51,816 nucleotides of DNA from an uncultured Candidatus Saccharibacteria bacterium (lineage in GTDB: Bacteria > Patescibacteriota > Minisyncoccia > Phycocordibacterales > Phycocordibacteraceae), in assembly GCA_964569655.1 (NCBI GenBank), contig CAZMTN010000003.1, positions 1 to 51,816 of the forward strand. Direction: 5' to 3'. A model generated the notes under the pieces. The model saw only the letters and a program-made list of their open reading frames with translations. It was not told where the DNA came from and ran no database searches. Shown in pieces: positions 112-48,488 of the stretch (position 1 is the first letter of the stretch; every line of letters starts with the position of its first letter). Made by a program: the position numbers and the translations under genes.

Positions 112-546
112 TTACGTGCCGCAATGATAGCTCGACAGAGTGGTAATGACCCTCACCGCCCTGACCCACAGGCCGCCGAACTCCACACTGAGGAACGTGC
201 GGTCCTCAGCGCCTAGACGGTCGTCCCGAGACAGCTCCTCGATCAAATCGGTGTATGAGTCGTTGATGCTATCGGTCAAGAACGGCTCGAGATCGTAGTA
301 GGCCGTATCGATATATGACCTCAGCCGCTCCACCTTAGGGTCCCAGGGCGAGCGCTTCCGGGTCCGCTCATAGTCTATGTGCGCCGCTGCAAGCTCGCGG
401 AGTTTATCCGGCTCGATGTACTCCTCGCCGGTGATAACGATACTCTTCTGTTTATTCAGCTTTGCCAGCCACTCGTATGAGGCATCGTCTTCAAGAGCGC
501 GGAACTCTATAAGGCACCGCGCGAACTCTATCTGATCCTGGCGCAT
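112..546 (-). CDS. Hypothetical acidic helical protein, 144 aa (orphan)
   Basis: C-terminal part of the 112..1158 ORF that does not overlap trpS; ATG 546 with GAGGGG 5 nt upstream and TTGACA/TATACC further up. Confidence 0.6.
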   Translation of the reverse strand: MRQDQIEFARCLIEFRALEDDASYEWLAKLNKQKSIVITGEEYIEPDKLRELAAAHIDYERTRKRSPWDPKVERLRSYIDTAYYDLEPFLTDSINDSYTDLIEELSRDDRLGAEDRTFLSVEFGGLWVRAVRVITTLSSYHCGT

Positions 547-657
547 AGCTACCCCTCGTTGAAAGACCTTCGCTATACACCGGTATAGCAATGGCGCAGG
601 GCTTCTGTCAAAAACGGCGAGTGCTGCCTCCTGCGCACGTATGCTATCGTGATGAGC

Positions 658-1602
658 ATGACCAGCGGGAAAAAGACACTCCTCACCGGACTCCAGCCGT
701 CTGGAGATCTCCATATCGGCAACTACTTCGGCGCCTTGAAGCCGTTCGTGGACGCATACGGGAAATACGACAGCTACCTCATGATCGCGGACTACCACGC
801 GCTCACGTCGCTCCATGACCGGGATGCGCTCCGTCAGAACACCATTGAAGTGGTGAAGGACTACCTCGCTGCAGGCATCAATCCTGCTAAGGCGGTCATC
901 TTCAAGCAGTCGGACGTGCCGGCGCACACCGAGCTGGCCTGGATCTTCGACTGCCTCGTTACCGTCCCGTTCCTCATGCAAGGGCATGCCTATAAGGACA
1001 AGGTAGCGAAGGGCCTCGAGCCGAACGCAGGCCTCTTCACCTATCCGATGCTCATGGCAGCGGACATCCTCCTCTACAACACTGACGTAGTGCCTGTCGG
1101 CGAGGACCAGCGCCAGCATATCGAGTACGCCCGCGAAGCAGCTTCGAAGTTCAATCACGCGTTCGGCGAGCTCTTCAAAGAGCCGAAGGAGATGATCCTC
1201 TCGGGCGTCGGCATCGTGCCGGGCACGGACGGGAAGAAGATGAGCAAGAGCTACAAGAACACCATCCCGCTCTTCGGCTCAAGAGAAGAGCTCGCGAAGG
1301 CGGTCATGAGCATCGTCACGGACTCGGGTTCAGACAGGCCGGAGAACGTGTTCGCGATCCATAAGCTCCTCAAGACTGACGCGGAGCTCATGCCGCTGTA
1401 CGAGGACAAGAAGGGGAGGTATAAGGACCTGAAGGAGGCCCTCATTGAGGATCTCGACGCGTTCCTCGCTCCCATGCGAGAGAAGCGCGCATCCATCACG
1501 GACGCAGACGTGGCCAAGGTGCTGTCTTCAGGAGCTGAGAAGGCGAGGGCGGCGAGCGAAGCGAAGATGCAGGAGGTGCGGAAGGCGGTGGGCGTACGCT
1601 AA
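658..1602 (+). CDS. trpS: Tryptophanyl-tRNA synthetase
   Basis: TGLQPSG-LHIGNY (HIGH), YPMLMAADILLY, VPVGEDQ-QH, KMSKS; start placed at 658 from the -10 box at 645-650. Confidence 0.97.
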   Translation: MTSGKKTLLTGLQPSGDLHIGNYFGALKPFVDAYGKYDSYLMIADYHALTSLHDRDALRQNTIEVVKDYLAAGINPAKAVIFKQSDVPAHTELAWIFDCLVTVPFLMQGHAYKDKVAKGLEPNAGLFTYPMLMAADILLYNTDVVPVGEDQRQHIEYAREAASKFNHAFGELFKEPKEMILSGVGIVPGTDGKKMSKSYKNTIPLFGSREELAKAVMSIVTDSGSDRPENVFAIHKLLKTDAELMPLYEDKKGRYKDLKEALIEDLDAFLAPMREKRASITDADVAKVLSSGAEKARAASEAKMQEVRKAVGVR

Positions 1603-1659
1603 GTTGCTCAGCGCTGCCCGCTGCGCTATAAGGTAATGGGACAAAGAGGGCTTGGGCCA

Positions 1660-1881
1660 ATGATTCACCCGCTCATCGGTTGCATGGAGCGTACGGCGGA
1701 TGTCATTTTCACCGGACCTGATGCGCACGCCTTGCTTGCAGACTGGCTTCCGACAGCGGAAACCGAAACCCACACGGCTGCTCTTGTCGGGCAGATCTAT
1801 CTCGGCAAGAGCAAGCCGCCGGAATTGCATGCCTGGGTTATGCTGATTGAAAGGCCGGTACAGCTGAGCTTCGATTTCTGA
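1660..1881 (+). CDS. Small hypothetical protein (73 aa; alternative start 1636) ending in QLSFDF
   Basis: Fills the trpS-aspS gap; AGAGGG upstream of ATG 1660; possible TTGCTC-N17-TATAAG promoter; C-terminal clamp-binding-like hexamer. Confidence 0.5.
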   Translation: MIHPLIGCMERTADVIFTGPDAHALLADWLPTAETETHTAALVGQIYLGKSKPPELHAWVMLIERPVQLSFDF

Positions 1882-1942
1882 GTTTTAAGTACACGACGAT
1901 TACGCCCTGCGGATAACCGCAGGGCGTGGTATTTTATAGTCC

Positions 1943-9717: not shown

Positions 9718-9828
9718 GAAGGGCCTATAATGAGGAGCATTCTGAGCAGGGAAGGGACAAAGAAATAGCCTTATTATAAGCCATATTTCAATACCTGGAT
9801 TAAGGGAAGATGAGGCTGAACCCCTTGA

Positions 9829-9852
9829 CTATTGACACCTAGCGTGCTACTA
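9829..9852 (+). promoter_or_regulatory. Sigma70-type promoter of the 3D-domain gene
   Basis: TTGAC-like hexamers upstream and an extended -10 TGcTACTAT about 30 nt before ATG 9885. Confidence 0.5.
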
Positions 9853-9884
9853 TGGTCTGACGAAGTGGTTATCCGCTTCGTGCT

Positions 9885-13089: not shown

Positions 13090-13121
13090 CATGGAGGGGT
13101 TACCAGCATTTACCGATATCC

Positions 13122-13532: not shown

Positions 13533-13549
13533 GTTCTGAAGCTCATGCA

Positions 13550-13577
13550 GAAAAGCCGCCCGTACGGGCGGCTTTTC
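13550..13577. terminator. Bidirectional intrinsic terminator
   Basis: GAAAAGCCGCCC-GTAC-GGGCGGCTTTTC between convergent genes. Confidence 0.85.
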
Positions 13578-13620
13578 GTATAAAAATGCCCCCGGATGGT
13601 TAGTCCGGAGGCAGATGGGG

Positions 13621-14304
13621 CTATGCGATATTAAGGGATTCCCGGGAAAGGCGGCGCACTTTCTCATGCGCTGCCTTTTTCTCCGCCTGATACGCGCTAA
13701 GGAACATGCGTCCCTCAGTGCTGCCGAGCCAGTGCATGAGGCCACGCATGACGATCCGATCCCGGTGCTGCACAGCAAAGGGATCAAAGCGGTGCGGGGA
13801 CTCGCCGAGCGGACCGAGGACGATGCCGCTGTTGCAGCGGCTCGAGCACACATGCGTGAGAAGCAGAGCGAGGCAGAAGCTCCGCTTCTTCCGCTCCTGA
13901 TCGAATTTGTGGACGAACTCGAGCGCCGGGTCCTCGGGAGCGGGATCGTGGTAGAGCGGAGACCCTTCCACGAAGACGGTCCCGCAATGAGCACCGAGCC
14001 ATTGCACTGTGCTCGAGAGCACGAGAATATCCCGATTGAGGTAGGGAAGGTCAGCGAAGACGAAGTCCCCGTTCAGGATCCGATCCGACCGGTTGAAGTC
14101 CGGGAGGATGCGGTGGATGATCTTCTCCGCAGGAAGGACTGGCGAGGCGTTGGAGCGATTGGCCCGGTCCCAGTGCTGGGCGATGATGCGCTCCGAATTC
14201 ACGTGGAAGCGGGGATCCCGACCATTGAAGGCCAGGCGCTCCACGGAAAGCGGGAAAGCGAATCCGTAGGGCGTAAGCGAGAGGTCCATCATGGGATGGC
14301 GCAT
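13621..14304 (-). CDS. Hypothetical protein, 227 aa, with a 90-aa internal duplication
   Basis: AAAGGA 6 nt upstream; repeated RDxxV...WLGxxxGxxF motif at residues 90-112 and 180-202. Confidence 0.7.
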   Translation of the reverse strand: MRHPMMDLSLTPYGFAFPLSVERLAFNGRDPRFHVNSERIIAQHWDRANRSNASPVLPAEKIIHRILPDFNRSDRILNGDFVFADLPYLNRDILVLSSTVQWLGAHCGTVFVEGSPLYHDPAPEDPALEFVHKFDQERKKRSFCLALLLTHVCSSRCNSGIVLGPLGESPHRFDPFAVQHRDRIVMRGLMHWLGSTEGRMFLSAYQAEKKAAHEKVRRLSRESLNIA

Positions 14305-14386
14305 GCGTTTTCCTTTCAGGTAACAGGTCTCGGGGGACTATACCGCAAATGGCCTGGCAAATGAAATCGGCCACTGTTTAGGTAAC

Positions 14387-14423
14387 GGAAAAGCCCACCG
14401 CTGTCGTGCCGGTGGGCTTTTCC
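14387..14423 (-). terminator. Terminator downstream of tRNA-Glu
   Basis: GGAAAAGCCCACCG / CGGTGGGCTTTTCC 14-bp stem. Confidence 0.75.
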
Positions 14424-14431
14424 TCTGTATG

Positions 14432-14503: not shown

Positions 14504-14540
14504 TGGTCTCACTGTTATAGCAGAAATCGGGCAAAAGAAA

Positions 14541-14574
14541 AACCGCCCGCCGGATGAAGTGTCCGGGGGCGGTT
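14541..14574 (-). terminator. Intrinsic terminator of the 14593..14913 orphan
   Basis: AACCGCCC/GGGCGGTT stem with an A-run 5' on + (U-tract on -). Confidence 0.65.
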
Positions 14575-14592
14575 CTCTAGAGACGGCGGCAT

Positions 14593-14913
14593 TTAGTCCA
14601 CTGGTTCCGGCTTGGTCTTGAAGCGCAGGTGCTTGGTAATCGCATCACCGAGGCGATACGCATCACTTTCCAGGCTGAGGCTCTGAGGTATGACCGGTCG
14701 AGAGAACTTCGTGCCCTCGGCGCAGCCATGCAGTTCGACGAAGCCATTGGTCGCAGCATGGAAATCCTGCAGCTCCTCGACACCGAAGTCGCGCGGCCTG
14801 CGGGGAACTACGGCAAAGATCTGCTCTTGATGTCCGATCCGGACCAGGCTCGGATAGAAGACCTTTACGGTCTCCGGCCGGTCCTCAGCATCGGAGGTTC
14901 TTGCAAGACGCAT
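14593..14913 (-). CDS. Hypothetical protein, 106 aa (orphan)
   Basis: AGGAG 6 nt upstream, TGcTATAAT at 14974-14979 (- strand), own terminator. Confidence 0.6.
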   Translation of the reverse strand: MRLARTSDAEDRPETVKVFYPSLVRIGHQEQIFAVVPRRPRDFGVEELQDFHAATNGFVELHGCAEGTKFSRPVIPQSLSLESDAYRLGDAITKHLRFKTKPEPVD

Positions 14914-15001
14914 GGTTAGCTCCTGTGTTGTGTATCTGGTTGGGCCCCACCAACAACGCTTTCTTGCGCTTTGATTATAGCACGATGTCCTCCTTTTGTC
15001 C

Positions 15002-15457
15002 CTACTGGAGCAAGGAATCTACAACCGCCTTCACGTCGCCGCCGTCCGCCTTGCCTTTGAGCTCCTTCATGAGGATGCCAGTGAACTTACCGGCCTCGGC
15101 CTTGCCGGTGATGCCGAGCTCCGCGATCTTCGCCTCCGCGATAGCCTTGATGTCCTCGCGGCTCATCATGGCCGGCATGAGGGACTCGATGATGACGAGC
15201 TCCTCCTTCTCGCCGCCCGTGAGCTCGATGCGGCCCGCGGCCTCGAACTGCTGGATGGAGTCCTTGCGCTGATTCGCCGCGCGTTTGAGCACCGCCTGCG
15301 CCTCCTCGTCCGTGAGGAACTGGTCCGGCTTGCGGCCTTTCGCTACCGCTTCGTTCGTCATCGCGGATACCAAGGAGCGCAGCGTGCGGAGCTTCGCCTC
15401 GTCCTTGGCGCGCATCGCGTCCGGGATGCTTGCCTTCAGGGATTCGTGTATAGCCAT
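15002..15457 (-). CDS. GatB/YqeY domain protein
   Basis: DAMRAKDEAKLRTLRS, KRAANQRKDSIQQFEAAGR-EL, KELKGKADG. Confidence 0.93.
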   Translation of the reverse strand: MAIHESLKASIPDAMRAKDEAKLRTLRSLVSAMTNEAVAKGRKPDQFLTDEEAQAVLKRAANQRKDSIQQFEAAGRIELTGGEKEELVIIESLMPAMMSREDIKAIAEAKIAELGITGKAEAGKFTGILMKELKGKADGGDVKAVVDSLLQ

Positions 15458-15559
15458 GCCCGCATAGTAGCACCTGGACATTATGCACAGGCCTGCTTGA
15501 TTTATTACAACTATAGTGGTATAGTAATTCCAGCCTGCACCCTTCAGCTGGAGATATCC

Positions 15560-15841
15560 ATGCAAGACACGCTCACACGGAAACTTCCGGTGGTACCCCG
15601 CCTCGGCAGCCCGTGGCTGCACTTCACCCCCAAGGCCCTGTATCGTTTCCTCGGGGAGCCGCAATGGACCGACCCTGACCGGATCGGACAGTGCCCGCTC
15701 ATCATGATCGTCTGCGAAGTCCGCGACGGCCAGACCTGCGAGTTCAGCGCGTTCATGATCGACCACGCTGATCTGCTTGCGAAGGCGCTCGACTATAGCC
15801 GGCCGTTCGTCGTGATCGACGGCGTCCCTCGCAGCCGCTGA
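15560..15841 (+). CDS. Hypothetical protein, 93 aa (orphan)
   Basis: TTGATT-N17-TATAGT (15497-15525), GGAG 6 nt upstream, terminator downstream. Confidence 0.6.
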   Translation: MQDTLTRKLPVVPRLGSPWLHFTPKALYRFLGEPQWTDPDRIGQCPLIMIVCEVRDGQTCEFSAFMIDHADLLAKALDYSRPFVVIDGVPRSR

Positions 15842-15862
15842 GTCCAGCACAGAAGAAGCAAG

Positions 15863-15895
15863 GGCCCGCGCTTAACAACGCGGGCCTTTTTCTTT
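15863..15895 (+). terminator. Intrinsic terminator
   Basis: GGCCCGCG/CGCGGGCC followed by a T-run. Confidence 0.75.
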
Positions 15896-15911
15896 GGGAT
15901 ATAATCAGCGC

Positions 15912-16967
15912 ATGGATATCGTCGCCGTAGGCATCATCGTCATCATCGTTTTCATACTCCAGGGCATCGGCCTCTGGTACCTCTTCGGCCGCAGGCAGGA
16001 CGTGCCCGCAGACAACGGCGGCATGCTGCTGCTCCAGAAGCAGGTCCAGGACATGGCGCGCTCCATCGATCAGCGCGTCTCGGAGTCGAGCAAGCAGATG
16101 CAGGACAGCGTCCACCGCCAGCTCACCGAATCCACGCGCATCATCCGGGAGGTGACCGAAGGACTCACCAAGCTCGATGAGACCAATAGGCAGGTGGTCT
16201 CCTTCGCGGACCAGCTCCAGGGGCTCCAGGATATCCTCAAGAACCCGAAGCAGCGCGGCATCCTCGGCGAGTACTACCTCGAGACCGTGCTCAAGAACGT
16301 CATGCCGCCCGGTAGCTACCAGATGCAGTTCCCGTTCGCGAACGGGGAGATCGTAGACGCGGTGGTGTTCGTGAAGGACCGCATCATCCCGATTGACTCC
16401 AAGTTCTCGCTCGAGAACTACAACCGCGCCATCGAGGCCCGTGACCCCGAGGACCGCGCCGTATACGAGAAGCAGTTCAAGACGGACCTCAAGAACCGCA
16501 TCGACGAGACCGCTAAGTACGTCCGTCCGGAGGAGAACACCATGGAATTCGCCTTCATGTTCATCCCCAGCGAGGGCATCTACTACGACCTCCTCTCGAA
16601 CCAGGTGGGGGCGCTCAAATCGGCTACCCGGGACCTCATCGAGTACGCCTTCCAGAAGAAGGTCATCATCGTCTCGCCGACCTCCTTCCTCGCGTACCTC
16701 CAGACCGTCATGCAGGGACTCAAAGGCATGCAGATCGAGGAGCAGGCAGCGGAGATCAAGAAGCGGGTAGGGGAGCTCGGGAAGCACGTGGCTGCCTTCG
16801 AGGAGTTCTACCGGAAGATCGGTGTCGCGCTCGGCACTACCGTTTCGCATTACAACAGCGCGTACAAGGAGCTCGCGAAGATAGACAAGGACGTCTACCG
16901 CATAGACGGGAGCAAGATAGGCATCGAGCAGAACCTTCTGGATAAGCCGGTAGCGGAGCTTGACTGA
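15912..16967 (+). CDS. rmuC: DNA recombination protein RmuC
   Basis: N-terminal TM and coiled coil, KQRGILGEYYLE, IPIDSKF-LENY, FAFMFIPSEG, SPTSFLAYL. Confidence 0.93.
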   Translation: MDIVAVGIIVIIVFILQGIGLWYLFGRRQDVPADNGGMLLLQKQVQDMARSIDQRVSESSKQMQDSVHRQLTESTRIIREVTEGLTKLDETNRQVVSFADQLQGLQDILKNPKQRGILGEYYLETVLKNVMPPGSYQMQFPFANGEIVDAVVFVKDRIIPIDSKFSLENYNRAIEARDPEDRAVYEKQFKTDLKNRIDETAKYVRPEENTMEFAFMFIPSEGIYYDLLSNQVGALKSATRDLIEYAFQKKVIIVSPTSFLAYLQTVMQGLKGMQIEEQAAEIKKRVGELGKHVAAFEEFYRKIGVALGTTVSHYNSAYKELAKIDKDVYRIDGSKIGIEQNLLDKPVAELD

Positions 16968-17044
16968 TTTATATAACTGTGTTAGATTATTAACAGTCGT
17001 TCCCAGCACAATTCCTGTGCTGAACAAATATAGAAAGGACTCCC

Positions 17045-17401
17045 ATGCTGCGTCTTTCCTTGGTTATCATTCTCACCGTGCTGTGTCTTATTCTTCTGAA
17101 GGGCATGGCTGAGTCGTATACCGGGGCTCTCAGCTTCGGCATCTTCATCACCGCCATCGGTCTCTCCTTCGCGAGCTACTGCGCCGGGCTCTCACGGCCG
17201 GGCTACTCCCGTGACAAGCTCAAGGCAGGGGTCAAATACCATGTGGTGCATCGCGACAAGCTGCACCCAAGGGAAGTGATGCCCGCTGGACAGATCACCT
17301 GGCTGCGGACCAGCACGGGGGAGAACCTGATGATTATCTTCAACAGCGAAATCCCGCCTGATTCCTTCATGGTGAGCAAAGGTCAGCTGGTTCCTTGCTG
17401 A
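17045..17401 (+). CDS. Hypothetical membrane protein, 118 aa (orphan)
   Basis: Two N-terminal hydrophobic segments; TTGACT-N17-TAGATT (16960-16988); AAAGGA 5 nt upstream. Confidence 0.65.
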   Translation: MLRLSLVIILTVLCLILLKGMAESYTGALSFGIFITAIGLSFASYCAGLSRPGYSRDKLKAGVKYHVVHRDKLHPREVMPAGQITWLRTSTGENLMIIFNSEIPPDSFMVSKGQLVPC

Positions 17402-17419
17402 GCACGGTAGATCAGCGAA

Positions 17420-17454
17420 AAGGCCGGTACTCTTTAGTACCGGCCTTGTCTTTT
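17420..17454 (+). terminator. Intrinsic terminator
   Basis: AAGGCCGGTACT/AGTACCGGCCTT 12-bp stem. Confidence 0.75.
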
Positions 17455-17803: not shown

Positions 17804-17825
17804 AACCCGCCCTCCGGCGGGTTTT
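17804..17825 (+). terminator. Intrinsic terminator after rplU
   Basis: AACCCGCC-CTCC-GGCGGGTT plus TT. Confidence 0.65.
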
Positions 17826-17882
17826 GACTTTAACGGCCGGTGCGCCATACTCAGCCGCAGATCAATTTGTTGGGAGGGAATA

Positions 17883-18293
17883 ATGAGGAAACGAAGCGTG
17901 GCGCCCATCTTCGCCGCCGCCGTCATAATCGGAGGGATCATTGGATTCCTACATGTGCTGAACGAGCTTGAAAAGCCAATTCGTGCTGAGCACGCCCGCG
18001 TGCAAGGACTGATCGAGGAGATCAAGCAAAGCCCCGCGTGCTCACGACTGGTGATAGAGAGACCGGTCGTGGTAATGGGCAAGAAGGGCCTGCATCTCAG
18101 CGATTGGGTCATGCTGAATATGGACCTGATCGATGGCTACGTAGTGATCTGGGACAAGCGGAGGGGTCTCCGCCGGCTCGAATTCAAGGATCCGGAAGAT
18201 TTCTTCAACGTCCGTGCCGTCATCCCCGGAGAGAAGCCTGACCGCTTCGTGCATAACGACTACTGCACCAAGCGCGAAGCCACGTCCATCTGA
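17883..18293 (+). CDS. Hypothetical membrane-anchored protein, 136 aa (orphan)
   Basis: N-terminal TM, GGGAGG 5 nt upstream, one Cys pair. Confidence 0.65.
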   Translation: MRKRSVAPIFAAAVIIGGIIGFLHVLNELEKPIRAEHARVQGLIEEIKQSPACSRLVIERPVVVMGKKGLHLSDWVMLNMDLIDGYVVIWDKRRGLRRLEFKDPEDFFNVRAVIPGEKPDRFVHNDYCTKREATSI

Positions 18294-18300: not shown

Positions 18301-18337
18301 GAAGAACCGCCGTGCCCTGTGGCCGGCGGTTTTCTTT
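18301..18337. terminator. Bidirectional terminator
   Basis: GAACCGCCG/CGGCGGTTTT stem between convergent genes. Confidence 0.65.
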
Positions 18338-18938
18338 ACGTCTCCTTCCTGTTCTGAAGCGCGCTCGTAAGAGTGGTCGCGTCCGCGTACTCGAGCTCGG
18401 AGCCGGTCGCGAGGCCGCGGCCGAGCACGGTCAGCGCCACGCGGTCGCGGTAGGGAGCGAGGAGCTCGCGGACGCGGTCCGCCGTGTGCTCGCCTTCGCT
18501 CGTCGCCGAAAGCGCGAGCACGATCTCCTTGAGGCCCTTGGCGAGCCTCATATCCGCCATCTTCCCGAGCTCCCGCTCGCGGATGATGCCTTTGCCCGAG
18601 AGCGTGAGGACGCCTCCTAGTACGAAATAGCGGCCGCGGTAGGTGCCGGCGCGCTCGACCGCGAGCAGGTCCTGGTCCTTCTCCACCACCATGAGCATGG
18701 AATCGTCGCGGGAGGTGTCGGCGCAGTAGTTGCAGAGGTTGTTCTGCGTGGAGGCGAAGCGGTAGCACTGCGCGCACTGCTGCACGTCGCGAGCGAGGTC
18801 CTGTATCAAGGAGGAGAGCTTTGCGCGGTCCGCAGACGATGCGGAAAGGAGGTGGTAGACGAAGCGTTTGGCCTGGCGGGGACCGATTCCCGGGAACCGG
18901 GCGAACGCGTGCGCGAGCTCCTCGATGCGGTCCCGCAT
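18336..18938 (-). CDS. recR: Recombination protein RecR
   Basis: FPGIGPRQA-R, C4 zinc finger CAQC..CNYC, TOPRIM (VVEK, YFVLGG, EGEHTA), GSELEYAD. Confidence 0.96.
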   Translation of the reverse strand: MRDRIEELAHAFARFPGIGPRQAKRFVYHLLSASSADRAKLSSLIQDLARDVQQCAQCYRFASTQNNLCNYCADTSRDDSMLMVVEKDQDLLAVERAGTYRGRYFVLGGVLTLSGKGIIRERELGKMADMRLAKGLKEIVLALSATSEGEHTADRVRELLAPYRDRVALTVLGRGLATGSELEYADATTLTSALQNRKET

Positions 18939-20301: not shown

Positions 20302-20313
20302 CCCCTCATGCTA

Positions 20314-21765: not shown

Positions 21766-21779
21766 GCCTACAGTCTACC

Positions 21780-22697: not shown

Positions 22698-22772
22698 GCA
22701 TTCAGTATACAAGCCGCCTGCGCACAACAAATCGCTCGCTGGGTATACATGCCTAATGCTATGATGAGATAA

Positions 22773-29581: not shown

Positions 29582-29608
29582 CCAGCCGTTGACCGACGGC
29601 TGGTTTTT
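29582..29608 (+). terminator. Intrinsic terminator overlapping the next promoter
   Basis: CCAGCCGT/ACGGCTGG plus TTTTT; contains TTGACC(29589-94) 16 nt before TATCCT. Confidence 0.65.
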
Positions 29609-29664
29609 GCTATCCTGGCGCGATACCCATGCAGGGAAGCATGGGTTGTCTCAGGGGCTTCATC

Positions 29665-29895
29665 ATGAGCGCAATAGGGAATGCTCGTCATCGGTACTAC
29701 CGCGGTTCCCGGACAAGGGACCGCTACTCGCTTCACGCGAATATCCTCTGGTTCACGCTGACCGTCGTCCTGGTCCTGGTCCTCTACTTCTGGCTCCTTC
29801 AGTATCCTGAAGTGGGCTACATCGAAGCAGGACTCATCACCGGGCTGGTGGCCATCGTGACTCTCGGCATAGTGCTGTACTTCCGCAAATACTGA
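29665..29895 (+). CDS. Small two-TM hypothetical protein, 76 aa (orphan)
   Basis: Two hydrophobic helices; AGGGG 7 nt upstream of ATG 29665. Confidence 0.55.
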   Translation: MSAIGNARHRYYRGSRTRDRYSLHANILWFTLTVVLVLVLYFWLLQYPEVGYIEAGLITGLVAIVTLGIVLYFRKY

Positions 29896-29920
29896 TCTTT
29901 CCCCAATAAGAACGTAAAGA

Positions 29921-29958
29921 AAACGGCCCGCCTAGTCAGCGAGCCGTTTGTCTTTTTT
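29921..29958. terminator. Terminator between convergent genes
   Basis: AAACGGC/GCCGTTT stem flanked by A- and T-runs. Confidence 0.55.
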
Positions 29959-33037: not shown

Positions 33038-33086
33038 TTGACAATTTACTATAACTAAGGTATACTTCACCTTAGTAAATTGTCAT
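33038..33086. promoter_or_regulatory. Palindromic, face-to-face promoter pair / operator
   Basis: TTGACA-N17-TATACT on +; ATGACA-N16-TATACC on -; 13-bp perfect IR TGACAATTTACTA(33039-51)/TAGTAAATTGTCA(33073-85). Confidence 0.65.
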
Positions 33087-33126
33087 CCAGGCATCCCGCT
33101 TGGACCTACAGCTAAGGAGAGAAGAG

Positions 33127-33549
33127 ATGCGAATTGCTTTGATTGCTGCGGTCATGGGCGCCCTGCTCTATTCGAGCGAGACGACCCATGCGAAGTTCGG
33201 TGGCAGCCGCCCTGCCTGCAAGACGGAAGAATGCAAGCGCGATCGCCTCGGCCGCTATTACCACCAGCCGCTTCTGGACCGCGTCTTCGAAATCAAGAAT
33301 CAGCCGACCTGGATCAAGCTCGACAGCAAGGCGGATGAGACCGCGTATATCGGCTTCGGCCAGGTCGACATAGAGAACAGGATCTGCTTCGTGACGCTCA
33401 AGAACTCCGGACATGCCGCTCGCGTGCAAGGTACGCAATGGGGCGGCGGCAGCAACTGGATCTTCCTGACCATCGGCCACAGGACCTACGCTGCTCGTTG
33501 CACAAGCGGCAAGGTCGTCCTCGAAGCCCAGGCGAACAATCCCGTCTAA
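33127..33549 (+). CDS. Secreted Cys-containing hypothetical protein, 140 aa (orphan)
   Basis: Signal peptide, four Cys, AAGGAG 7 nt upstream, consensus promoter, terminator. Confidence 0.7.
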   Translation: MRIALIAAVMGALLYSSETTHAKFGGSRPACKTEECKRDRLGRYYHQPLLDRVFEIKNQPTWIKLDSKADETAYIGFGQVDIENRICFVTLKNSGHAARVQGTQWGGGSNWIFLTIGHRTYAARCTSGKVVLEAQANNPV

Positions 33550-33571
33550 TCCTCCTGACGAAGCCAAAACA

Positions 33572-33608
33572 ACGGGCGCCTACACATCGTAGGCGCCCGT
33601 ACTCTTTT
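33572..33608. terminator. Intrinsic terminator, possibly bidirectional
   Basis: ACGGGCGCCTAC/GTAGGCGCCCGT 12-bp stem. Confidence 0.8.
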
Positions 33609-34185: not shown

Positions 34186-34380
34186 TTAGGTTAGCGATCT
34201 GAGCCAGTCTACGCCATCCTCAAGGAAAGATACGATGAAGTCCCAGCCAGTCTCGATGAGATCACCAACGTAGTCGAAATTCGCCTGGCCAGCAGGAGAG
34301 TTGATGATGCTCTGGATGGTGATCCCGAAGAATGAGAGCACGAGCAGCGCTACGATCCCGTAGAATATGAGTCTGAGCAT
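34186..34380 (-). CDS. Small membrane protein, 64 aa
   Basis: N-terminal TM, amphipathic C-terminus; TATCAT 6 nt upstream. Confidence 0.7.
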   Translation of the reverse strand: MLRLIFYGIVALLVLSFFGITIQSIINSPAGQANFDYVGDLIETGWDFIVSFLEDGVDWLRSLT

Positions 34381-34488
34381 CCCTCAATGATACCGCACGG
34401 AATTCTCGCTTGGACCTGATTTGCACAGCCTCCTCCCCTGCCCTGTCCGGTTCTCGGCCGACCGAGATTCATGAAACTTTGGCGTATT

Positions 34489-35832
34489 TTAAAGGTAGGA
34501 CATCGGATTCAAGTATCCGGTCGGAGGAGATACGGGCATGGTCGCGTTAGAGCAGCCTGTCCTGCTGCCGTCCCCGCGGTATTGGCCGAGCGACATGATC
34601 TGCACGCCACTGGCTGCGTACACGCCGAAATGAAGGTGCGGGCCGGTCGCGTAGCCGGTCATGCCTGAGTTCCCTATCACCTGCCCCATGCTTACGGATT
34701 GTCCGGACGATACGTTGATCGATGAGAGGTGCGCATACAACGTCGCGAGCCCGTTCGGATGCTTGATCATGACCCACTTGCCAAACGAGTAGCATCCCGG
34801 CACCGCGTCCGTATTGCCGATGCCGAGTACCGAGCCTGAAGCAGCGGCCTGGACTGGCGTACCGACCGGAGAGCCCATATCGATGGCGTTGTGGCCGTTT
34901 CCGTTATAGATCTGCGGATTCGCGGTTGAGAAAGGAGTATTCCCGAAATACTGCGTGATACAGAAATTATTCCCCAGCGCGGCGGCCTTACCTTTGCAGG
35001 TAGCCATGAACTCGGCAGAATACGGCCATGCGAGCACGCCCGTTCCGATGGCCGGAACGCTCGCCGATCCGACCGACGTGAGGCTTGCTTCGAGCGCATT
35101 AAGCGCAGCCTCGAACGACTTCTGCTCGGCGCGCTTCTTCGCGATGAGGTCCTGATAGACCGTCTCCTGATTCTTCGTCTGCGCGAGAAGCTTGTTCTTC
35201 TCGGCGATGGCGATATCAAGCTGCTTCTTCTCGTTCGCGAGCTTAGTGTTGAGCTCGGTGAGCTGCGACTTCTGCTTGTCCTCTGCGGTCTTCTGCTCCG
35301 AGAGGTCTTCCTTGGCGCTCGTGAGATCGGCGGTGTGCTTCTTCAGCGCCTCGTTGAGCGCCATGTTAGCGTCCACCGCGGACCAGAGGTCCCCGAGGCT
35401 CTGGGAGGAGAAGACGCGCTCTGAGAGCGATGTCGTGTCCGCCTCGGCGATCTCTCGTATGGACTGCGCGAGTATCTGGCGGTCGAGCTCTATCTCGTAC
35501 TCGGTCTGAGTGATCTCGCCCGAGAGCTGTTTCAGCTTCAGGTTGCTCGCGGAAATCTGATTCTGGGTCACCTTGAGCTGTGACGTGGTCTGCGCGCGAG
35601 AGGTATCGATGGTCTTGATGGTGGTCTGCAGCGTCTGCTTCTGGGTCCCGAGGATATTCAGCTGGTTCTGGAACGTGGCGATCTCATCCTCGATAGCCTT
35701 GATCTTGGCGTTGTGCTCTTCGATCTGGTCTTGGATGTCGCTCTGGGCCTGCGCCGGAGAGACGAAGCACGCCAGGAGAAGGAATGCGGCGCTCAGGTAA
35801 GCGAATTGGAGCGCGTGCGTGCGAAAGGTCAT
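34489..35832 (-). CDS. M23 metallopeptidase with long coiled coil (EnvC/MepM-like)
   Basis: Signal peptide, heptad coiled coil, HNAID (HxxxD), YAHLS, GYATGPHLHF (HxH). Confidence 0.92.
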   Translation of the reverse strand: MTFRTHALQFAYLSAAFLLLACFVSPAQAQSDIQDQIEEHNAKIKAIEDEIATFQNQLNILGTQKQTLQTTIKTIDTSRAQTTSQLKVTQNQISASNLKLKQLSGEITQTEYEIELDRQILAQSIREIAEADTTSLSERVFSSQSLGDLWSAVDANMALNEALKKHTADLTSAKEDLSEQKTAEDKQKSQLTELNTKLANEKKQLDIAIAEKNKLLAQTKNQETVYQDLIAKKRAEQKSFEAALNALEASLTSVGSASVPAIGTGVLAWPYSAEFMATCKGKAAALGNNFCITQYFGNTPFSTANPQIYNGNGHNAIDMGSPVGTPVQAAASGSVLGIGNTDAVPGCYSFGKWVMIKHPNGLATLYAHLSSINVSSGQSVSMGQVIGNSGMTGYATGPHLHFGVYAASGVQIMSLGQYRGDGSRTGCSNATMPVSPPTGYLNPMSYL

Positions 35833-35853
35833 CAGCACCATTGTACGACAGAG

Positions 35854-45875: not shown

Positions 45876-46108
45876 CGTTTTAGGCCCTCGGATTTGACCA
45901 CTCCGCCTCCCCCGGCTACTCTCAAGAGGCAATGATGCATCGAGCGGATTGGCGTTATTCAGCCTACGGCCTCTTTAGGAAGGTCGGGGGTTCGCTTGAT
46001 GTTTCTCTCCAGAAGTAGCACTATCCGGACAGAGACATGAATCGAGCTCCCGACCATACGGCCAGGAGCTCGAGTTCTTTCTAACCAACCATCAGATAGT
46101 GAGGGACA

Positions 46109-46564
46109 ATGATCATCTATGCTGCTACCGAGCACTGCAGTCCATTAGCTCGGCACACCATCAGATGCTGTCAGGAACTGGGTTACAATTCCGTCCTACT
46201 CAGCATCTCGAAGCCAACTACCAACGAATCACTGGTACCGGTGGTGCCGATTTCCGCTCGCTTTCCCGGCGTCCCGTACATGACAACCCGGCTTCGCGAT
46301 TATCGGGCTCACGTGCCCTTCCTAGACTGGGCGCCTCGTGTACGGCTCATGCTGCTCGTAAACCAGAGCTTCGAGAATGTCATCTTCCTGGGCCGCGGTC
46401 AGCAGCATCAGGAATTCTTGAGGGCGTTGAGAAAGTGCAATCAGGAGCTGGAAGAGAGGGCGAGGATAGGAGTTAACACCTTGCCTCGCCCTATTCGAAA
46501 GCGCGATCTGAAAGCCATGGTGCAGCCAAAGCCCAAGCTCCAGCGAGCGGCAACTGGTTGGTGA
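46109..46564 (+). CDS. Hypothetical protein, 151 aa (orphan)
   Basis: GTGAGG just upstream; terminator downstream; no recognised motif. Confidence 0.55.
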   Translation: MIIYAATEHCSPLARHTIRCCQELGYNSVLLSISKPTTNESLVPVVPISARFPGVPYMTTRLRDYRAHVPFLDWAPRVRLMLLVNQSFENVIFLGRGQQHQEFLRALRKCNQELEERARIGVNTLPRPIRKRDLKAMVQPKPKLQRAATGW

Positions 46565-46579
46565 ACCTTACAAAATTAG

Positions 46580-46608
46580 AAGAGCGGCTTTTGCGAGCCG
46601 CTCTTTTT
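46580..46608. terminator. Bidirectional terminator
   Basis: AAGAGCGGCT/AGCCGCTCTT 10-bp stem plus T-run. Confidence 0.8.
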
Positions 46609-48178
46609 AGTTCACTGCCTCTTCCAATCTTTCGATTACGAAATCCCGCGGCAGCACAGATAGGAACCATCCCGCCTTCGGTCCTGAGTCGCGATTGAGG
46701 AAGAGCCGGTAGATCGCGGTGAAAAGCTCCTTCGGTGCAATCGAAACTTCATCCTTGAGCTCATGCAGCTTCGCGTGCATATCTTCCCCGTTCTTCTCTC
46801 CCTCCCGCATGAACGAAAGCAGCGAGACCATCGCGTGCTTCTGCGTGTCCGAGAGCGCGTATGCCGGCAGTTCCTGCTGAAGCTCGTAGCGGTACTGCTC
46901 AGGCGCATACGTGGAGAGCCAGAACTTCGCGTACCCGGCGCGCTCCGCGAGCGCTTCCTTCTCCTCGTCGTTCAAGGCGCTGCCCTTCACGCGCGCAGCT
47001 TCCTCTTCAAGATTCAGATGCGGCATCTGCACTATGAACGCCACCTGCGAGAAGCGCAGCATCCACGGGAGCGGCACGTCTCCCTGGTTCTCCGGGGTCT
47101 GGGTGAGCGTGAAGAGGCGGGTGTAGTCGGTATCGCCGCCGCTGCGGACGTACTCAGCGAGCTCATCGTACCAGTCGTACCAGCGCGGCACACTCTCGCC
47201 TTCGGGCTCGAAGTTGATCTGCTCCTTTATGTCTTTCCCAATGAGCGCGAGGCGGAACACGGACGGCGGGAAGAGCTCCGCGATATCCCTCGCGGACGTG
47301 CCCCTCCCCTTCGACGAGGACATCTTCTTCCCGCCGACGAGGAAGAACTCGTACGGGATATTGTATGGCGGCTCATAGCCGTAGACCTCCCTGGCGATGT
47401 GGTTCGAGACATCGCGGGAACCGCCTTTGGTCGAGTGGTCCTTCCCGCCACCTTCGACGTCCACCCCGAGCGCCACCCACTTTGCGGCCCAATCCACCTT
47501 CCAGAAGAGCTTTGCCGTGCCGCCGTACGGCGCGATGCGTCCTGAATGCCCGCATGCCTTCACCTCGTCCGGATTCTTATCGCAGGCGTACGCGACGGTC
47601 TCACCATCGAAGTCGTAGACGCGGGTGGTCATCATCTTCCCGCACTGCTCGCACACCACCGATACCGGGAGCCAACTATCGTCCTTCACTGAACCGGATA
47701 CTTCCTTCAGGATGCGGCGGATATCTGGAGCGCGCTCGAGCGCTACCTTGATGAGCGCATCCATCTTTCCCGCCTTGTACAGGTCTGCATAGGCGCGGTA
47801 GTAGGTTGGCGTGAATCCGCCCTTCGCATGGACACTCGCGAACTCTGCGCCGAAGTACTCGGCGTAATTCGGATATGCCGGGTCCGGAGACGGCACTGCA
47901 TAGAGCGGCTTCCCGAGATGTTCCGCATAGGCCTGCGCATCCAGATAGCCCGGAACCGAGTCGAACGGATCAAAGTCGTTAAGCTCGTAGCGGTATTCGT
48001 TCTGAATGCCGTACTCGCTCAATACTTCCGCGATGATCCCGTGAATGGCAACGCCGCGCATGGAGCCGATATGGACGCGGCCGGAAAGGGTCTTCTCATC
48101 GCGGATAAGGAGCGGCTTGTCCGCCTTTCCTGCGCGCGATTCCTGGATTTCTCTCGCGATGCGGTCTGCCCAAAACAT
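46607..48178 (-). CDS. lysS: Class I lysyl-tRNA synthetase
   Basis: MFWAD, SG-VHIG-MRG, W-P-V-C-CG, KL-WKVDW, GGKDH, PYEFF, KMSSSKG. Confidence 0.95.
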   Translation of the reverse strand: MFWADRIAREIQESRAGKADKPLLIRDEKTLSGRVHIGSMRGVAIHGIIAEVLSEYGIQNEYRYELNDFDPFDSVPGYLDAQAYAEHLGKPLYAVPSPDPAYPNYAEYFGAEFASVHAKGGFTPTYYRAYADLYKAGKMDALIKVALERAPDIRRILKEVSGSVKDDSWLPVSVVCEQCGKMMTTRVYDFDGETVAYACDKNPDEVKACGHSGRIAPYGGTAKLFWKVDWAAKWVALGVDVEGGGKDHSTKGGSRDVSNHIAREVYGYEPPYNIPYEFFLVGGKKMSSSKGRGTSARDIAELFPPSVFRLALIGKDIKEQINFEPEGESVPRWYDWYDELAEYVRSGGDTDYTRLFTLTQTPENQGDVPLPWMLRFSQVAFIVQMPHLNLEEEAARVKGSALNDEEKEALAERAGYAKFWLSTYAPEQYRYELQQELPAYALSDTQKHAMVSLLSFMREGEKNGEDMHAKLHELKDEVSIAPKELFTAIYRLFLNRDSGPKAGWFLSVLPRDFVIERLEEAVN

Positions 48179-48257
48179 GAGTGCATCCTAGCATGAGTTG
48201 CGATATGCCTCGTTTTATGGCTGAATGGCTCGGTATTCGATAAAGGGGAGTTCTTTG

Positions 48258-48488
48258 ATGCGTTTCTTCGTAACACTGTGTTTCGTTTGCTTGCTCGCTA
48301 GCTTCTTCTACGGCATGCGCCTCGTTACCCCGTTCCCGGGGCTGCCGAGCGGCCTCGGGTGGCTGGGAGTAGTCCTATTTGTCATCCTGCTCGTCGGGTG
48401 CATCTTCCAGAGAGCATTGAAAGCCCAGGACGAAGCACACCTGAAGCGGGAACGTGACATCGCTTTGCGCGCAGGCTGTCAGCTGTAG
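48258..48488 (+). CDS. Small two-TM hypothetical protein, 76 aa (orphan)
   Basis: Two hydrophobic helices; GGGGAG 7 nt upstream. Confidence 0.55.
   Translation: MRFFVTLCFVCLLASFFYGMRLVTPFPGLPSGLGWLGVVLFVILLVGCIFQRALKAQDEAHLKRERDIALRAGCQL

Follow-up and report, generated by a model that had tools for sequence, protein, structure and literature searches.

Two start-signal architectures at core and accessory genes of a Kaiserbacteria-like Paceibacteria contig and its relatives

The window (a whole contig of 51.8 kb) belongs to a Kaiserbacteria-like member of the Paceibacteria (Patescibacteria/CPR) and carries two kinds of gene start, with an SD motif leading accessory, fast-evolving genes and a Pribnow-type box abutting the start codon of most core genes. 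This architecture and the statistics that describe it are conserved in ~120 related loci. The explanation that we favour, with slightly better than even confidence, is that two modes of expression coexist, that SD-led genes are young or fast-turnover and lineage-specific, and that the signal tracks the age or residence time of a gene and not its donor. Genomes with dual Pribnow-box/SD signals form an established class, group C of GeneMarkS-2 (PMC6028130).

An SD was scored as a GGAG, GAGG or AGGA core at a gap of 3–10 nt ahead of the start, and a box as a Pribnow-type TAnnnT ending 4–9 nt ahead of the ATG. An earlier note on this DNA had listed ten orphan genes with SD-like motifs 4–7 nt from the start codon, and all ten motifs were found at the starts claimed:

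Cassette 1, 75..557, minus strand: ORF 112-546, 144 aa; SD GAGGGG 552-557; terminator hairpin 75-104; the protein is a singleton cluster with no match in Pfam, PHROG, NCBIfam or PADLOC.
Cassette 2, 13587..14345, minus strand: ORF 13621-14304, 227 aa; SD AAAGGA 14311-14316; TATAGT box 32 nt upstream of the ATG; terminator 13587-13613.
Cassette 3, 14528..15002, minus strand: promoter GGGACA-17-TATAAT at 15002-14974; ORF 14593-14913, 106 aa; SD AGGAG 14920-14924; weak terminator 14528-14549; a single weak match (32% identity) among 80 relatives.
Cassette 4, 15497..15889, plus strand: promoter TTGATT-17-TATAGT at 15497-15525; SD GGAG 15550-15553; ORF 15560-15841, 93 aa; bidirectional terminator 15860-15889; 0 matches in 80 relatives.
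Cassette 5, 16960..17447, plus strand: promoter TTGACT-17-TAGATT at 16960-16988; SD AAAGGA 17034-17039; ORF 17045-17401, 118 aa, with an N-terminal transmembrane segment; terminator 17420-17447; gene in the RmuC-L21 junction.
Cassette 6, 17824..18293, plus strand: promoter TTGACT-16-CATACT at 17824-17851; SD GGGAGG 17872-17877 (duplex energy -10.7 kcal/mol); ORF 17883-18293, 136 aa; no terminator of its own found; 0 matches in 80 relatives.
Cassette 7, 29589..29949, plus strand: promoter TTGACC-16-TATCCT at 29589-29616; SD-like AGGGG 29653-29657; ORF 29629 or 29665 to 29895, 88 or 76 aa (the deposited protein starts at 29629); hairpin 29921-29949 common to convergent L27; the weakest case of the ten.
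Cassette 8, 33038..33600, plus strand: promoter TTGACA-17-TATACT at 33038-33066 (11/12 match); SD AAGGAG 33114-33119; ORF 33127-33549, 140 aa, signal-peptide-like; bidirectional terminator 33572-33600; no homologue among 5.8 billion proteins.
Cassette 9, 46039..46605, plus strand: 5' hairpin ~46039-46082; SD GTGAGG 46099-46104; ORF 46109-46564, 151 aa; terminator hairpin 46580-46605 common to LysRS.
Cassette 10, 48225..48528, plus strand: SD GGGGAG 48245-48250; ORF 48225 or 48258 to 48488, 87 or 76 aa, an opposite-strand membrane protein gene within the GreA-LysRS junction; terminator 48497-48528.

A consensus scan recovered the four -35/-10 promoters placed by the earlier note at 15497, 16960, 29589 and 33038, and added two more upstream of orphans, at 17824 and 15002 (minus strand). 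The claim that most orphans end at their own hairpin terminator stood for seven (546, 14304, 14913, where it is weak, 15560, 17045, 33127 and 48258) but not for 29665 and 46109, each of which has one hairpin in common with a convergent neighbour, nor for 17883. The SD core occurred at 9/10 orphan starts, compared to 11.8% of the 1,777 window ATGs (binomial p = 4e-8) and 2/39 Pfam genes (Fisher p = 2.6e-7), both of the latter being TAGGAT -10 boxes. The anti-SD energy scan proposed by the earlier note also separated the classes, with mean duplex energies (kcal/mol, computed with a generic anti-SD) that averaged -7.2 in orphans against -2.95 in core genes and -3.4 in the background. Because eleven further hypothetical genes, mostly of the pilin operon, have neither an SD nor an abutting box, the fair contrast for the window is 10/21 genes without Pfam versus 2/39 with Pfam (p = 2e-4).

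The ORFs of three orphans (29665, 33127 and 48258) have an earlier start codon than the one used, which was apparently selected for its SD; the AGGGG motif of 29665 is weak. Annotation bias, through spurious orphan ORFs or starts chosen for a purine motif, would also be in keeping with orphans 546, 15560 (long form), 46109 and 48258 scoring like non-coding shadow ORFs under a native codon model, and with the preference of gene finders for SD-preceded starts. As an account of the contrast it is extremely improbable and already largely refuted: with 5'-most starts the SD persists at 7/10 orphans (p = 4e-5 versus core genes), orphans 14304 and 46109 have alignable homologues and conserved motifs, and the plus frame of orphan 15560 has coding-type GC by position (0.65/0.45/0.82). 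Further, independent genomes gave an odds ratio of 10 under one start rule and positional null, higher coding scores came with a larger SD fraction, and shared orphans are at dN/dS <1.

The core side of the two regimes had been argued from the absence of an SD, and now has evidence of its own, with a TAnnnT box at a gap of 4–9 nt in 22/39 Pfam genes (3.3% background, p = 6e-23) and 0/10 orphans. The statement that no core gene has a well-spaced SD held, apart from the two TAGGAT boxes, for a core set that numbers ~39 Pfam- or family-annotated genes and not 20, and the purine runs reported to abut the starts of dnaB and a 64-aa gene are the 6-nt spacers that follow a TAGCAT or TATCAT box. From this promoter geometry the box-abutted core genes are probably leaderless. 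The core features are:

RmuC, 15900..16967, plus strand: TATAAT 15900-15905, 6-nt spacer, ATG 15912; box at gap 5–8 in 91% of orthologues (n = 57).
DnaB, 18940..20313, minus strand: TAGCAT 20308-20313, spacer GAGGGG, GTG 20301; 86% of orthologues box-abutted (n = 77).
CysRS, 20314..21777, minus strand: TAGACT 21772-21777, 6-nt spacer, ATG 21765.
CorA and S41 peptidase, 21780..22765, divergent putative leaderless pair: boxes before both ATGs; 66% of orthologues box-abutted in each family.
CorA, minus strand: TATACT 22704-22709, ATG 22697.
S41 peptidase, plus strand: TATGAT 22760-22765, ATG 22773.
Class-I LysRS, 46607..48190, minus strand: TAGGAT 48185-48190, 6-nt spacer, ATG 48178; the layout recurs in loci L163 (TACGAT+6), L164 (TAGTAT+6) and L165 (TAGGAT+7).
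YqeY, 15002..15469, minus strand: TACTAT 15464-15469, 6-nt spacer, true start ATG 15457.
M23 peptidase, in 34186..35845, minus strand: TACAAT 35840-35845, 7-nt spacer, ATG 35832; 21/21 orthologues box-abutted.
Conserved 64-aa gene, in 34186..35845, minus strand: TATCAT 34387-34392, 6-nt spacer, ATG 34380.
RecR, 18336..18938, minus strand: ATG 18938, 1 nt after the dnaB stop (TAAtATG), without SD or -10 box; 76 orthologues downstream of DnaB.
L27, 29966..30266, minus strand: ATG 30238, TATAGT 30261-30266, 22 nt upstream.

The AGGA ahead of LysRS was rejected as an SD, as it belongs to the TAGGAT -10 box, and a 282-aa ORF for YqeY was rejected as an over-extension. With neither signal, RecR falls into a third category of core genes, the coupled ones. 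L27 has a short leader without an SD, and its 5' end overlaps a divergent Ada-like gene (ATG 30258) by 21 nt. Other leadered genes of the window are SD-free as well, e.g. the 966-aa gene at 25148 and hyp9885.

The contrast was compared across 77 species-representative related loci, window excluded, and replicated in 47 metagenome loci, with an any-candidate-start rule and positional null used alike for conserved and singleton classes. Across the 77 loci, 114/230 singleton ORFs (50%) were SD-led compared to 83/944 conserved genes (9%; odds ratio 10.2, p = 4e-41), the conserved genes being orthologues whose effective sample amounts to the window and ~30 families in the vicinity of dnaB; SD use is thus unequal in core and accessory sets. 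The contrast was present in all upstream-distance classes, and the SD share of singletons rose from 50% to 61% with coding score. The metagenome loci gave 30% versus 7% (p = 3e-8), and the pattern was replicated in another genomic neighbourhood (L163-L165) using the depositors' gene calls and Pfam labels. In an unrelated island, 8/8 hypothetical genes had a strong SD, while neighbouring PEMT and GrpE had a box 6 nt ahead of the ATG and DUF2283 one 4 nt ahead. Conserved genes were box-abutted in 51% of cases, with a TAnnnT gap peak at 6–9 nt (8–11.5% versus a null of ~0.7%), and no family among ~30 was mainly SD-led. The start codon was ATG at 96% of box-abutted versus 80% of SD-led starts (p = 5e-7), which fits leaderless initiation.

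The SD gap in singleton ORFs peaked at 5–9 nt (4.5–7.5% versus a null of ~1.8%), and this sharp peak suggests that the SD functions in this lineage. The motif might instead be a decaying relic or serve another role, with no working ribosome-binding site in a lineage that may lack the anti-SD tail; for Parcubacteria, Tsurumaki et al. (2022; PMC9297842) detected the anti-SD motif CCTCCT at the 3' end of the 16S in only 48%, SD frequency in conserved genes lies below the null, and some leadered window genes have no SD. We consider this very improbable given a canonical composition (G 50–65% at -12 to -9, C/T depleted), a spacing peak drawn from hundreds of unrelated genes in >100 genomes, retention of the motif in vertically inherited small families and a motif frequency that climbs with coding score.

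The orphans are accessory at otherwise syntenic junctions, as the earlier note had proposed, and are not conserved vertically across the order: the seven within comparison reach had 0–1 matches in 80 syntenic loci, and relatives from the source sample covered the core genes but not the orphans. In 24/59 relatives the L21-RmuC junction is compact (<150 nt); in the others it is filled by unrelated genes. No relative above ~73–86% protein identity was present in any collection searched, so that insertion and divergence beyond recognition look alike at occupied junctions. In two protein collections, of 5.8 billion and 1.84 billion entries, the orphans were singletons or had one distant relative. 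Shared orphans had 5–20x faster dN than their neighbours at dN/dS of 0.06–0.70, rates which indicate that they are real coding genes, evolving fast.

The earlier note likened these units to phage morons, with the initiation signal a possible mark of gene origin. On a foreign-origin reading, SD-led ORFs would be horizontally acquired cassettes that CPR phages or another kind of mobile DNA brought in, with an SD inherited from an SD-using donor, which is possible but unlikely. The part that stood is that of accessory, self-contained units with their own promoter and terminator, and several observations lean the same way: absence from the 80 syntenic relatives, junction hot spots that hold unrelated genes (RelE/ParE-type toxin-antitoxin pairs, an FAD oxidoreductase, a porin-like protein), and a sole homologue of orphan 14304 (40% identity) that sits in another Paceibacteria MAG in a different context, an island of SD-led hypothetical genes. 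Orphan GC3 is also lower than that of core genes (0.73 versus 0.80, p = 0.0025), as are native codon scores. The foreign origin itself did not hold up as well, as the proposed search against phage families (PHROG) gave no orphan match, nor did Pfam, NCBIfam or PADLOC, and no donor appeared in either protein collection. The note's own failure to find an integrase or shared att repeat was borne out, and flanking direct repeats are absent too. Orphan and host GC had a mean difference of 0.000 (r = 0.76 over hosts of 42–65% GC), though the ORF caller filters for host-like codon usage and so favours this result. Small SD-led families lay at the same junction in sister species in 18/19 cases, consistent with inheritance in place, and the clearly mobile toxin-antitoxin pairs do not have SD-led starts.

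Cassette 9 has a counterpart on L162 with regulatory flanks (5' hairpin, SD, terminator) ~90% identical, a protein 30% identical and an adjoining GreA 91% identical, a pattern that favours fast divergence in place, or a swap of alleles, over a fresh insertion. In L163 and L164 the GreA-LysRS junction is occupied by other SD-led genes on the opposite strand, of 80 and 340 aa respectively. A leader so conserved beside so divergent a protein implies selection on the leader itself, as might be expected if conditional or tunable genes keep an SD leader (for attenuators, RNA structures or 30S-dependent control) while constitutive genes are leaderless, accessory genes being overrepresented among the regulated ones. 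Information-processing functions are known to be overrepresented among leaderless genes (PMC3160421), and members of small families keep the SD. Such a functional split is nonetheless distinctly improbable as the explanation: the conserved leader is known from one case, SD-led orphans have no common protein property (transmembrane 32% versus 24–47% of conserved genes), and an SD is missing ahead of regulated core genes such as mraZ. The SD-led share also declines steeply with phylogenetic breadth (53% for genes with hits in 0 loci, 40% in 1, 16% in 2–4, 6–13% in >=5), a trend not expected under a purely functional model.

In the explanation by age or residence time, core genes (tRNA synthetases, DnaB, RmuC, CorA, penicillin-binding proteins, GreA, L9, YqeY) mostly carry TAnnnT 6–9 nt ahead of the ATG, a distance that would place the transcription start on the start codon or only a few bases from it, with the ribosome predicted to load directly on a 5'-terminal AUG; others have a stop/start overlap with the preceding gene (RecR) or very short SD-less leaders (L27). 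Species- or clade-restricted genes sit singly at borders between syntenic core genes, turning over and diverging rapidly, with a sigma-70-type -35/-10 promoter 25–60 nt upstream, an SD 5–9 nt before the start and usually their own intrinsic terminator. A new gene that has arisen or landed at a transcription-unit boundary may need a start signal able to work at varying distances from the promoter, as an SD leader would be, while the leaderless layout would require ~7 nt between -10 box and AUG; the two would exclude each other because they occupy the same positions. Leaderless starts may be what the long-resident genes of a streamlined genome settled on, and with the tolerance of the SD this would make the signal one of residence and not of a particular donor. 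A simple maturation series from SD to leaderless is not apparent, since genes of intermediate breadth (2–9 loci) are poor in both signals. Of the non-conserved genes, about half have no SD and a quarter carry an abutting box. For this lineage, the start signal predicts whether a gene is core or accessory.

As a complete contig of 51,816 bases (GC ~60%), the window holds ~60 genes typical of the Patescibacteria/CPR, including tRNA synthetases (TrpRS, AspRS, CysRS, GluRS, and class-I LysRS), ScpA/B, MraY, FtsW, MurG, MurF, penicillin-binding proteins, MraZ, RsmH, and MreC, type-IV pilus genes (PilB/PilC and pseudopilins), and DnaB, RmuC, YqeY, CorA, GreA, and the ribosomal proteins L21 and L9, along with one tRNA-Glu and one truncated tRNA at the 5' end. 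Set among the 39 Pfam-annotated genes (core genes) are ten ORFs, termed orphans, which start at positions 546, 14304, 14913, 15560, 17045, 17883, 29665, 33127, 46109, and 48258. Three core-gene positions were fixed as follows.

18336-18938, minus strand: RecR, its ATG separated from the dnaB stop by one base (TAAtATG)
29966-30238, minus strand: L27, with its ATG at 30238
15457, minus strand: true start of YqeY

The DnaB-RecR pair is kept in 76 relatives. L27 and an Ada-like zinc-binding gene (plus strand, ATG 30258) are divergent and share 21 nt at the 5' ends of their coding sequences (30238-30258), and the -10 box of each lies inside the coding sequence of the other. Long in-frame upstream extensions occur for YqeY, MraZ, MurG, GreA, ScpB, and a CAP-domain protein, so that taking the longest ORF would place all of these starts wrongly. 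Long shadow ORFs (337-464 aa), typical of high-GC DNA, run antisense to real genes at 112-1158, 12096-13109, 15753-17027, and 25640-27034 (all minus strand), and a 147-aa ORF antisense over DUF3467 (33629-34072) also looks spurious. The ~330 nt from the terminator of the orphan at 33127 to the end of DUF3467 (33601-33927) hold no convincing gene.

The earlier note had placed a purine motif before the start of each orphan, and all ten were located, 4-7 nt before the start codon. When the signal was restricted to a Shine-Dalgarno (SD) core of GGAG, GAGG, or AGGA at a gap of 3-10 nt (motif end to start codon), it preceded nine of the ten orphan starts, compared to 2 of the 39 Pfam-annotated starts (Fisher p = 2.6e-7) and 11.8% of the window's 1,777 ATGs. 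In both SD-positive Pfam genes, L9 and LysRS, the motif is a TAGGAT box. Three orphan starts had been chosen downstream of the first start codon; with the 5'-most starts the SD count is 7 of 10 (p = 4e-5). Eleven further hypothetical genes, mostly from the pilus operon, have neither an SD nor a box, and the unbiased contrast within the window is 10/21 genes without a Pfam annotation versus 2/39 with one (p = 2e-4). Only orphans and accessory genes showed a purine-rich GGAGG-type motif at a spacing of 5-10 nt. A 16S rRNA gene with its 3' end was sought in the window and in up to 165 related loci, and was found in neither.

The orphans also have the remaining parts of a self-contained transcription unit. 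A consensus scan recovered all four of the -35/-10 promoters previously proposed and added one before the orphan at 17883 and one before that at 14913, for a total of six orphans with such a promoter; of the 13 strong -35/-10 matches that the first 40 kb contains, 6 stand before orphans. The claim that most orphans end at their own hairpin terminator was borne out as well, with a hairpin and T-run after seven of the ten, two sharing one with a convergent gene, and one having none. A leadered class that lacks an SD is present too, seen in two hypothetical genes, one for a 966-aa PG-binding protein (upstream region 25059-25148) and one starting at 9885 (upstream region 9825-9885), with consensus -35/-10 elements and leaders of ~60 and 31 nt, respectively.

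For the core genes, a leaderless layout had previously been deduced from the missing SD alone, and the sequence upstream of their starts adds positive evidence for this prediction. A -10 (Pribnow-type) box of the form TAnnnT precedes 22 of 39 annotated genes, its end 4-9 nt and usually 6-7 nt from the start codon, against a background of 3.3% (p = 6e-23); none of the ten orphans has one. The purine runs reported to abut the starts of dnaB and a 64-aa gene do exist, and constitute the spacer between box and start. This spacing matches the geometry by which GeneMarkS-2 recognises leaderless transcription in bacteria, with the Pribnow box placed 6-8 nt from the start (PMC6028130). RNA sequencing runs were searched for the contig, and none was found to contain it.

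Boxes abutting core-gene starts (gene: box, spacer in nt)
RmuC: TATAAT, 6
CysRS: TAGACT, 6
CorA: TATACT, 6
S41: TATGAT, 7
LysRS: TAGGAT, 6
PBP2: TACGAT, 6
M23: TACAAT, 7
YqeY: TACTAT, 6
DnaB: TAGCAT, 6, then GTG

Between TrpRS and AspRS, a gap of 340 nt (1603-1942) contains a low-scoring 81-aa ORF (1636-1881) and then, at 1899-1930, a strong hairpin of 14 bp, the T-run of which overlaps the AspRS -10 box (TATTTT, 1930-1935), such that a terminator and a leaderless promoter are seemingly fused.

Using a DnaB scan restricted to one genome per species, it was possible to collect 80 loci with 72-86% DnaB identity, labelled Paceibacteria, Kaiserbacteria, Parcubacteria, or Minisyncoccia. ORFs were called in all 80 loci, a codon model was trained per locus, conservation was assessed by all-against-all BLASTP, and a single rule was applied to every gene, namely whether a signal occurs at any candidate start, with in-frame start codons inside genes as the null. 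With the window left out, 77 loci were usable, and in these, genes counted as conserved (hits in >=10 loci) were SD-led in 83/944 cases, compared to 114/230 ORFs with <=1 hit (odds ratio 10.2, p = 4e-41), while 51% of conserved genes and 24% of the ORFs with <=1 hit were abutted by a box. The TAnnnT box peaked at a gap of 6-9 nt in conserved genes (8-11.5% vs. ~0.7% for the null) and the SD core at a gap of 5-9 nt in singleton ORFs (4.5-7.5% vs. ~1.8%), with conserved genes below the null for the latter. The SD contrast held with the upstream neighbour <30, 30-120, or >=120 nt away; among conserved genes abutting their upstream neighbour, 6% had an SD and about 47% a -10 box of their own, with others being stop/start coupled. 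The share of SD-led genes fell with breadth of distribution (53%, 40%, 16%, and 6-13% for hits in 0, 1, 2-4, and >=5 loci) and the contrast strengthened with coding score (50% to 61%). With families as the unit, none of ~30 conserved families was mainly SD-led, the conserved set being limited in family number, and the box-abutted state was consistent within families (DnaB, 86%; RmuC, 91%; M23, 100%; YqeY, 79%; MurG, 86%). Box-abutted genes started with ATG in 96% of cases (481 ATG, 22 GTG), compared to 80% of SD-led genes (89 and 22; p = 5e-7), which fits a leaderless preference for AUG.

The association was replicated in three further settings. For 47 metagenome loci, an SD was present in 7% of conserved and 30% of non-conserved genes (p = 3e-8). 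In a different neighbourhood (loci L163-L165), based on the depositors' gene calls and Pfam labels, an SD occurred in 1-2 of 37 Pfam genes versus 6 of 17 without Pfam. An unrelated island from another Paceibacteria MAG (locus L081, 116-5465) consisted of eight hypothetical genes in a row, all of them preceded by a strong SD (GGGAGGG, AAGGAG, GAGGGGAGG, and similar), flanked by annotated genes of the leaderless type (PEMT, GrpE, and DnaK); beside it, a box ends 6 nt before the ATG in PEMT and GrpE and 4 nt before the ATG in DUF2283. Across hundreds of unrelated genes the SD motif keeps a canonical composition and a sharply defined spacing, which argues that it is probably functional in this lineage. 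Searches for closer relatives reached no further than 86% DnaB identity among the one-genome-per-species representatives, 78% RmuC identity among metagenome contigs, and 74% LysRS identity among 5.8 billion proteins, and the DNA runs contain the same strain and distant relatives only.

The gene order around the orphans is conserved, with YqeY, RmuC, L21, RecR, DnaB, CysRS, CorA, S41, L9, L27, and LOG collinear in 53-80 of the 80 loci; the seven orphans covered by this synteny comparison have 0-1 hits. The L21-RmuC junction is <150 nt in 24 of 59 relatives, and in the rest is occupied by unrelated genes, approximately two-thirds of them SD-led, including small membrane proteins, soluble proteins, RelE/ParE-type toxin-antitoxin (three species), an FAD oxidoreductase, and a porin-like protein. 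The RelE/ParE-like pairs at this junction (L015, 10397-11021; L036, 14200-14754; L045, 7378-7920) are not SD-led, unlike most junction genes. At the GreA-LysRS junction, a different SD-led gene on the opposite strand is found in the window, L163, and L164; the orphan at 48258 was compared with the 80-aa gene of L163 at this junction, and a relationship was rejected for want of any similarity. The CysRS-DnaB, CorA-CysRS, and S41-CorA junctions are nearly always compact. Within a sequencing run of the source metagenome (X1), relatives with >=80% nucleotide identity raise the read depth 3-6-fold over RmuC, L21, and YqeY (interval 13000-19000) and leave the orphan intervals unraised. One relative's contig in this run joins 16900 to 17588, skipping the orphan at 17045, and the relatives' depth over the tRNA-Glu is raised far above 3-6-fold.

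The proteins encoded by the ten orphans had zero matches in Pfam, PHROGs, NCBIfam, and PADLOC. In a collection of 15 billion proteins, nine of them form singleton clusters and the tenth (queried as an 87-aa form) is absent. The orphan at 14304 has one homologue (40% identity, clear conserved motifs), with which AlphaFold2 gave a pLDDT of 38, the orphan at 46109 has one homologue (30% identity), and a homologue search among 5.8 billion proteins for the orphan at 33127 found none. The proposition that SD-led genes simply encode membrane or secreted proteins was rejected, as transmembrane proteins make up 32% of them versus 24-47% of conserved genes.

Evidence on the origin of the orphans is mixed. 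The earlier note had likened them to phage morons, which are promoter-ORF-terminator units placed between conserved prophage genes, and a recent foreign origin of this kind is not singled out. The orphans are like morons in being autonomous transcription units, with their own promoter and terminator around a single ORF, each placed alone between two genes that are neighbours in relatives, and perhaps in deviating slightly in composition (GC3 0.06 lower). Unlike morons, they reside on a bacterial chromosome among housekeeping genes rather than in a prophage, their GC is near that of the host, and within small clades many have been inherited at a fixed site. No PHROG was matched by any of the ten, no donors are visible, and the window contains neither an integrase nor att-like flanking repeats, as previously reported: no such Pfam family is present and the direct repeats are at chance level and inside coding regions. 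Orphan GC in the window differs little from the remainder (0.583 vs. 0.606), though GC3 is nonetheless lower (0.73 vs. 0.80, p = 0.0025). Across relatives, the GC of SD-led orphans tracks the host over 42-65% (r = 0.76) with a mean difference of 0.000, an outcome that the codon filter favours. Of the earlier interpretation, the two initiation regimes and the accessory nature of the SD-led ORFs stand, while the moron or foreign origin stays conjectural; the resemblance is limited to the promoter-ORF-terminator unit and the defining context fails.

Inheritance in place with very fast change and mobility each find some support. Consistent with the former, SD-led families of 2-5 members occupy the same junction in 18/19 cases, and in pairs of sister species the dN of SD-led genes is 5-20x that of flanking core genes (dN/dS 0.06-0.70). 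The counterpart of the orphan at 46109 on locus L162 has a 5' hairpin, SD and ATG region, and terminator that are ~90% identical, around a protein of 30% identity, with GreA alongside at 91%. These conserved flanks (window, 46039-46108 and 46580-46605; L162, 60-133 and 608-628) include the stretch AACCAACCA. From its sequence, this orphan resembles a hypervariable cassette set within regulatory flanks that are conserved, possibly produced by diversifying selection or allele swapping, and the terminator-like hairpin inside its leader might be an attenuator. Mobility is favoured by junction contents that are unrelated between species and by the family of the orphan at 14304, which recurs in a different context, its sole homologue being in the L081 island.

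Taxonomically restricted genes and hot spots of pangenomes are generally short, fast-evolving, and without homologues, and are located at a few core junctions with species-variable occupancy. The orphans are similarly short, fast-evolving, homologue-poor, and clustered at few syntenic junctions; unlike such genes elsewhere, the accessory class here is also marked by a different initiation signal. A literature search for an accessory/core split by initiation signal found no description of one, and a full-text search for leaderless genes in CPR, Parcubacteria, or Patescibacteria found nothing relevant.

The layout most resembles group C of GeneMarkS-2, in which, according to the sections of Lomsadze et al. 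2018 (PMC6028130) on this group, genomes of the Actinobacteria and Deinococcus-Thermus mix leaderless and SD initiation, with a Pribnow box 6-8 nt before many starts and an SD equally far before others. In the window and the 77 loci, a Pribnow-like box ~6-8 nt before a large share of starts was likewise found, and box and SD exclude each other, since both take up the same positions. The SD class of group C, as those sections define it, consists of operon-internal genes and leadered first genes, whereas here conserved and operon-internal genes are almost without an SD; the peak at a gap of 5-9 nt is present essentially in non-conserved genes alone, and the class is almost entirely non-conserved and monocistronic. 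Patescibacteria are not among the lineages that the same sections name as frequent in group C. The dual Pribnow/SD layout is already known, and the departure from the published group C is an SD class coinciding with the flexible genome. For the Parcubacteria, which have reduced ribosomes, Tsurumaki et al. 2022 (PMC9297842) detected an anti-SD motif in no more than 48%; their study concerns the same broad group and covers rRNA and ribosomal-protein features, not start-site architecture. A core largely without SD fits a de-emphasised SD pathway, and the strong accessory SD peak argues that this pathway probably still operates in the lineage. Elsewhere, leaderless genes are reported to be enriched in information-processing functions (PMC3160421).

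On top of this architecture and its association with conservation, a mechanism can be proposed in which leaderless mRNAs of core genes would arise from promoters ~7 nt ahead of the AUG, often within the 3' end of the preceding gene, while other core genes would depend on stop/start coupling for their translation. Genes that are young or quickly replaced, at the boundaries of transcription units, would have an ordinary promoter, a leader of 25-60 nt, and SD pairing, for which an exact promoter-to-AUG spacing would not matter. As the -10 box and the SD would compete for the same positions, a gene would carry one or the other. We therefore infer that the signal probably reflects how old a gene is, or how long it has been resident, rather than which donor it came from. 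A bolder version, which we offer tentatively and consider rather doubtful, is that initiation mode is a sequence-readable marker of gene age in this Paceibacteria lineage, with new genes (by birth or transfer) entering as leadered SD monocistrons at a few junction hot spots and the ancient core converted almost wholesale, even in clusters, to promoter-abutted leaderless transcripts.

Gene finders that assume an SD will mis-place most core starts here, a risk illustrated by the mis-extended YqeY, MraZ, MurG, and GreA, while still performing well on accessory genes. The layout suggests that in a streamlined, probably symbiotic lineage most housekeeping genes are seemingly transcribed as individual leaderless mRNAs. 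The SD pathway is apparently retained but relegated to young genes, which bears on the Parcubacteria without a detectable anti-SD and raises the question of how genes switch initiation mode with age. The signal also provides a one-contig criterion for the flexible gene pool, small, fast-evolving, and often membrane proteins likely mediating host or phage interactions. If initiation mode does mark gene age, the ribosome would run two mechanistically distinct initiation pathways for two evolutionary strata, and the core and flexible genomes of uncultured CPR bacteria would be separable from a single contig.
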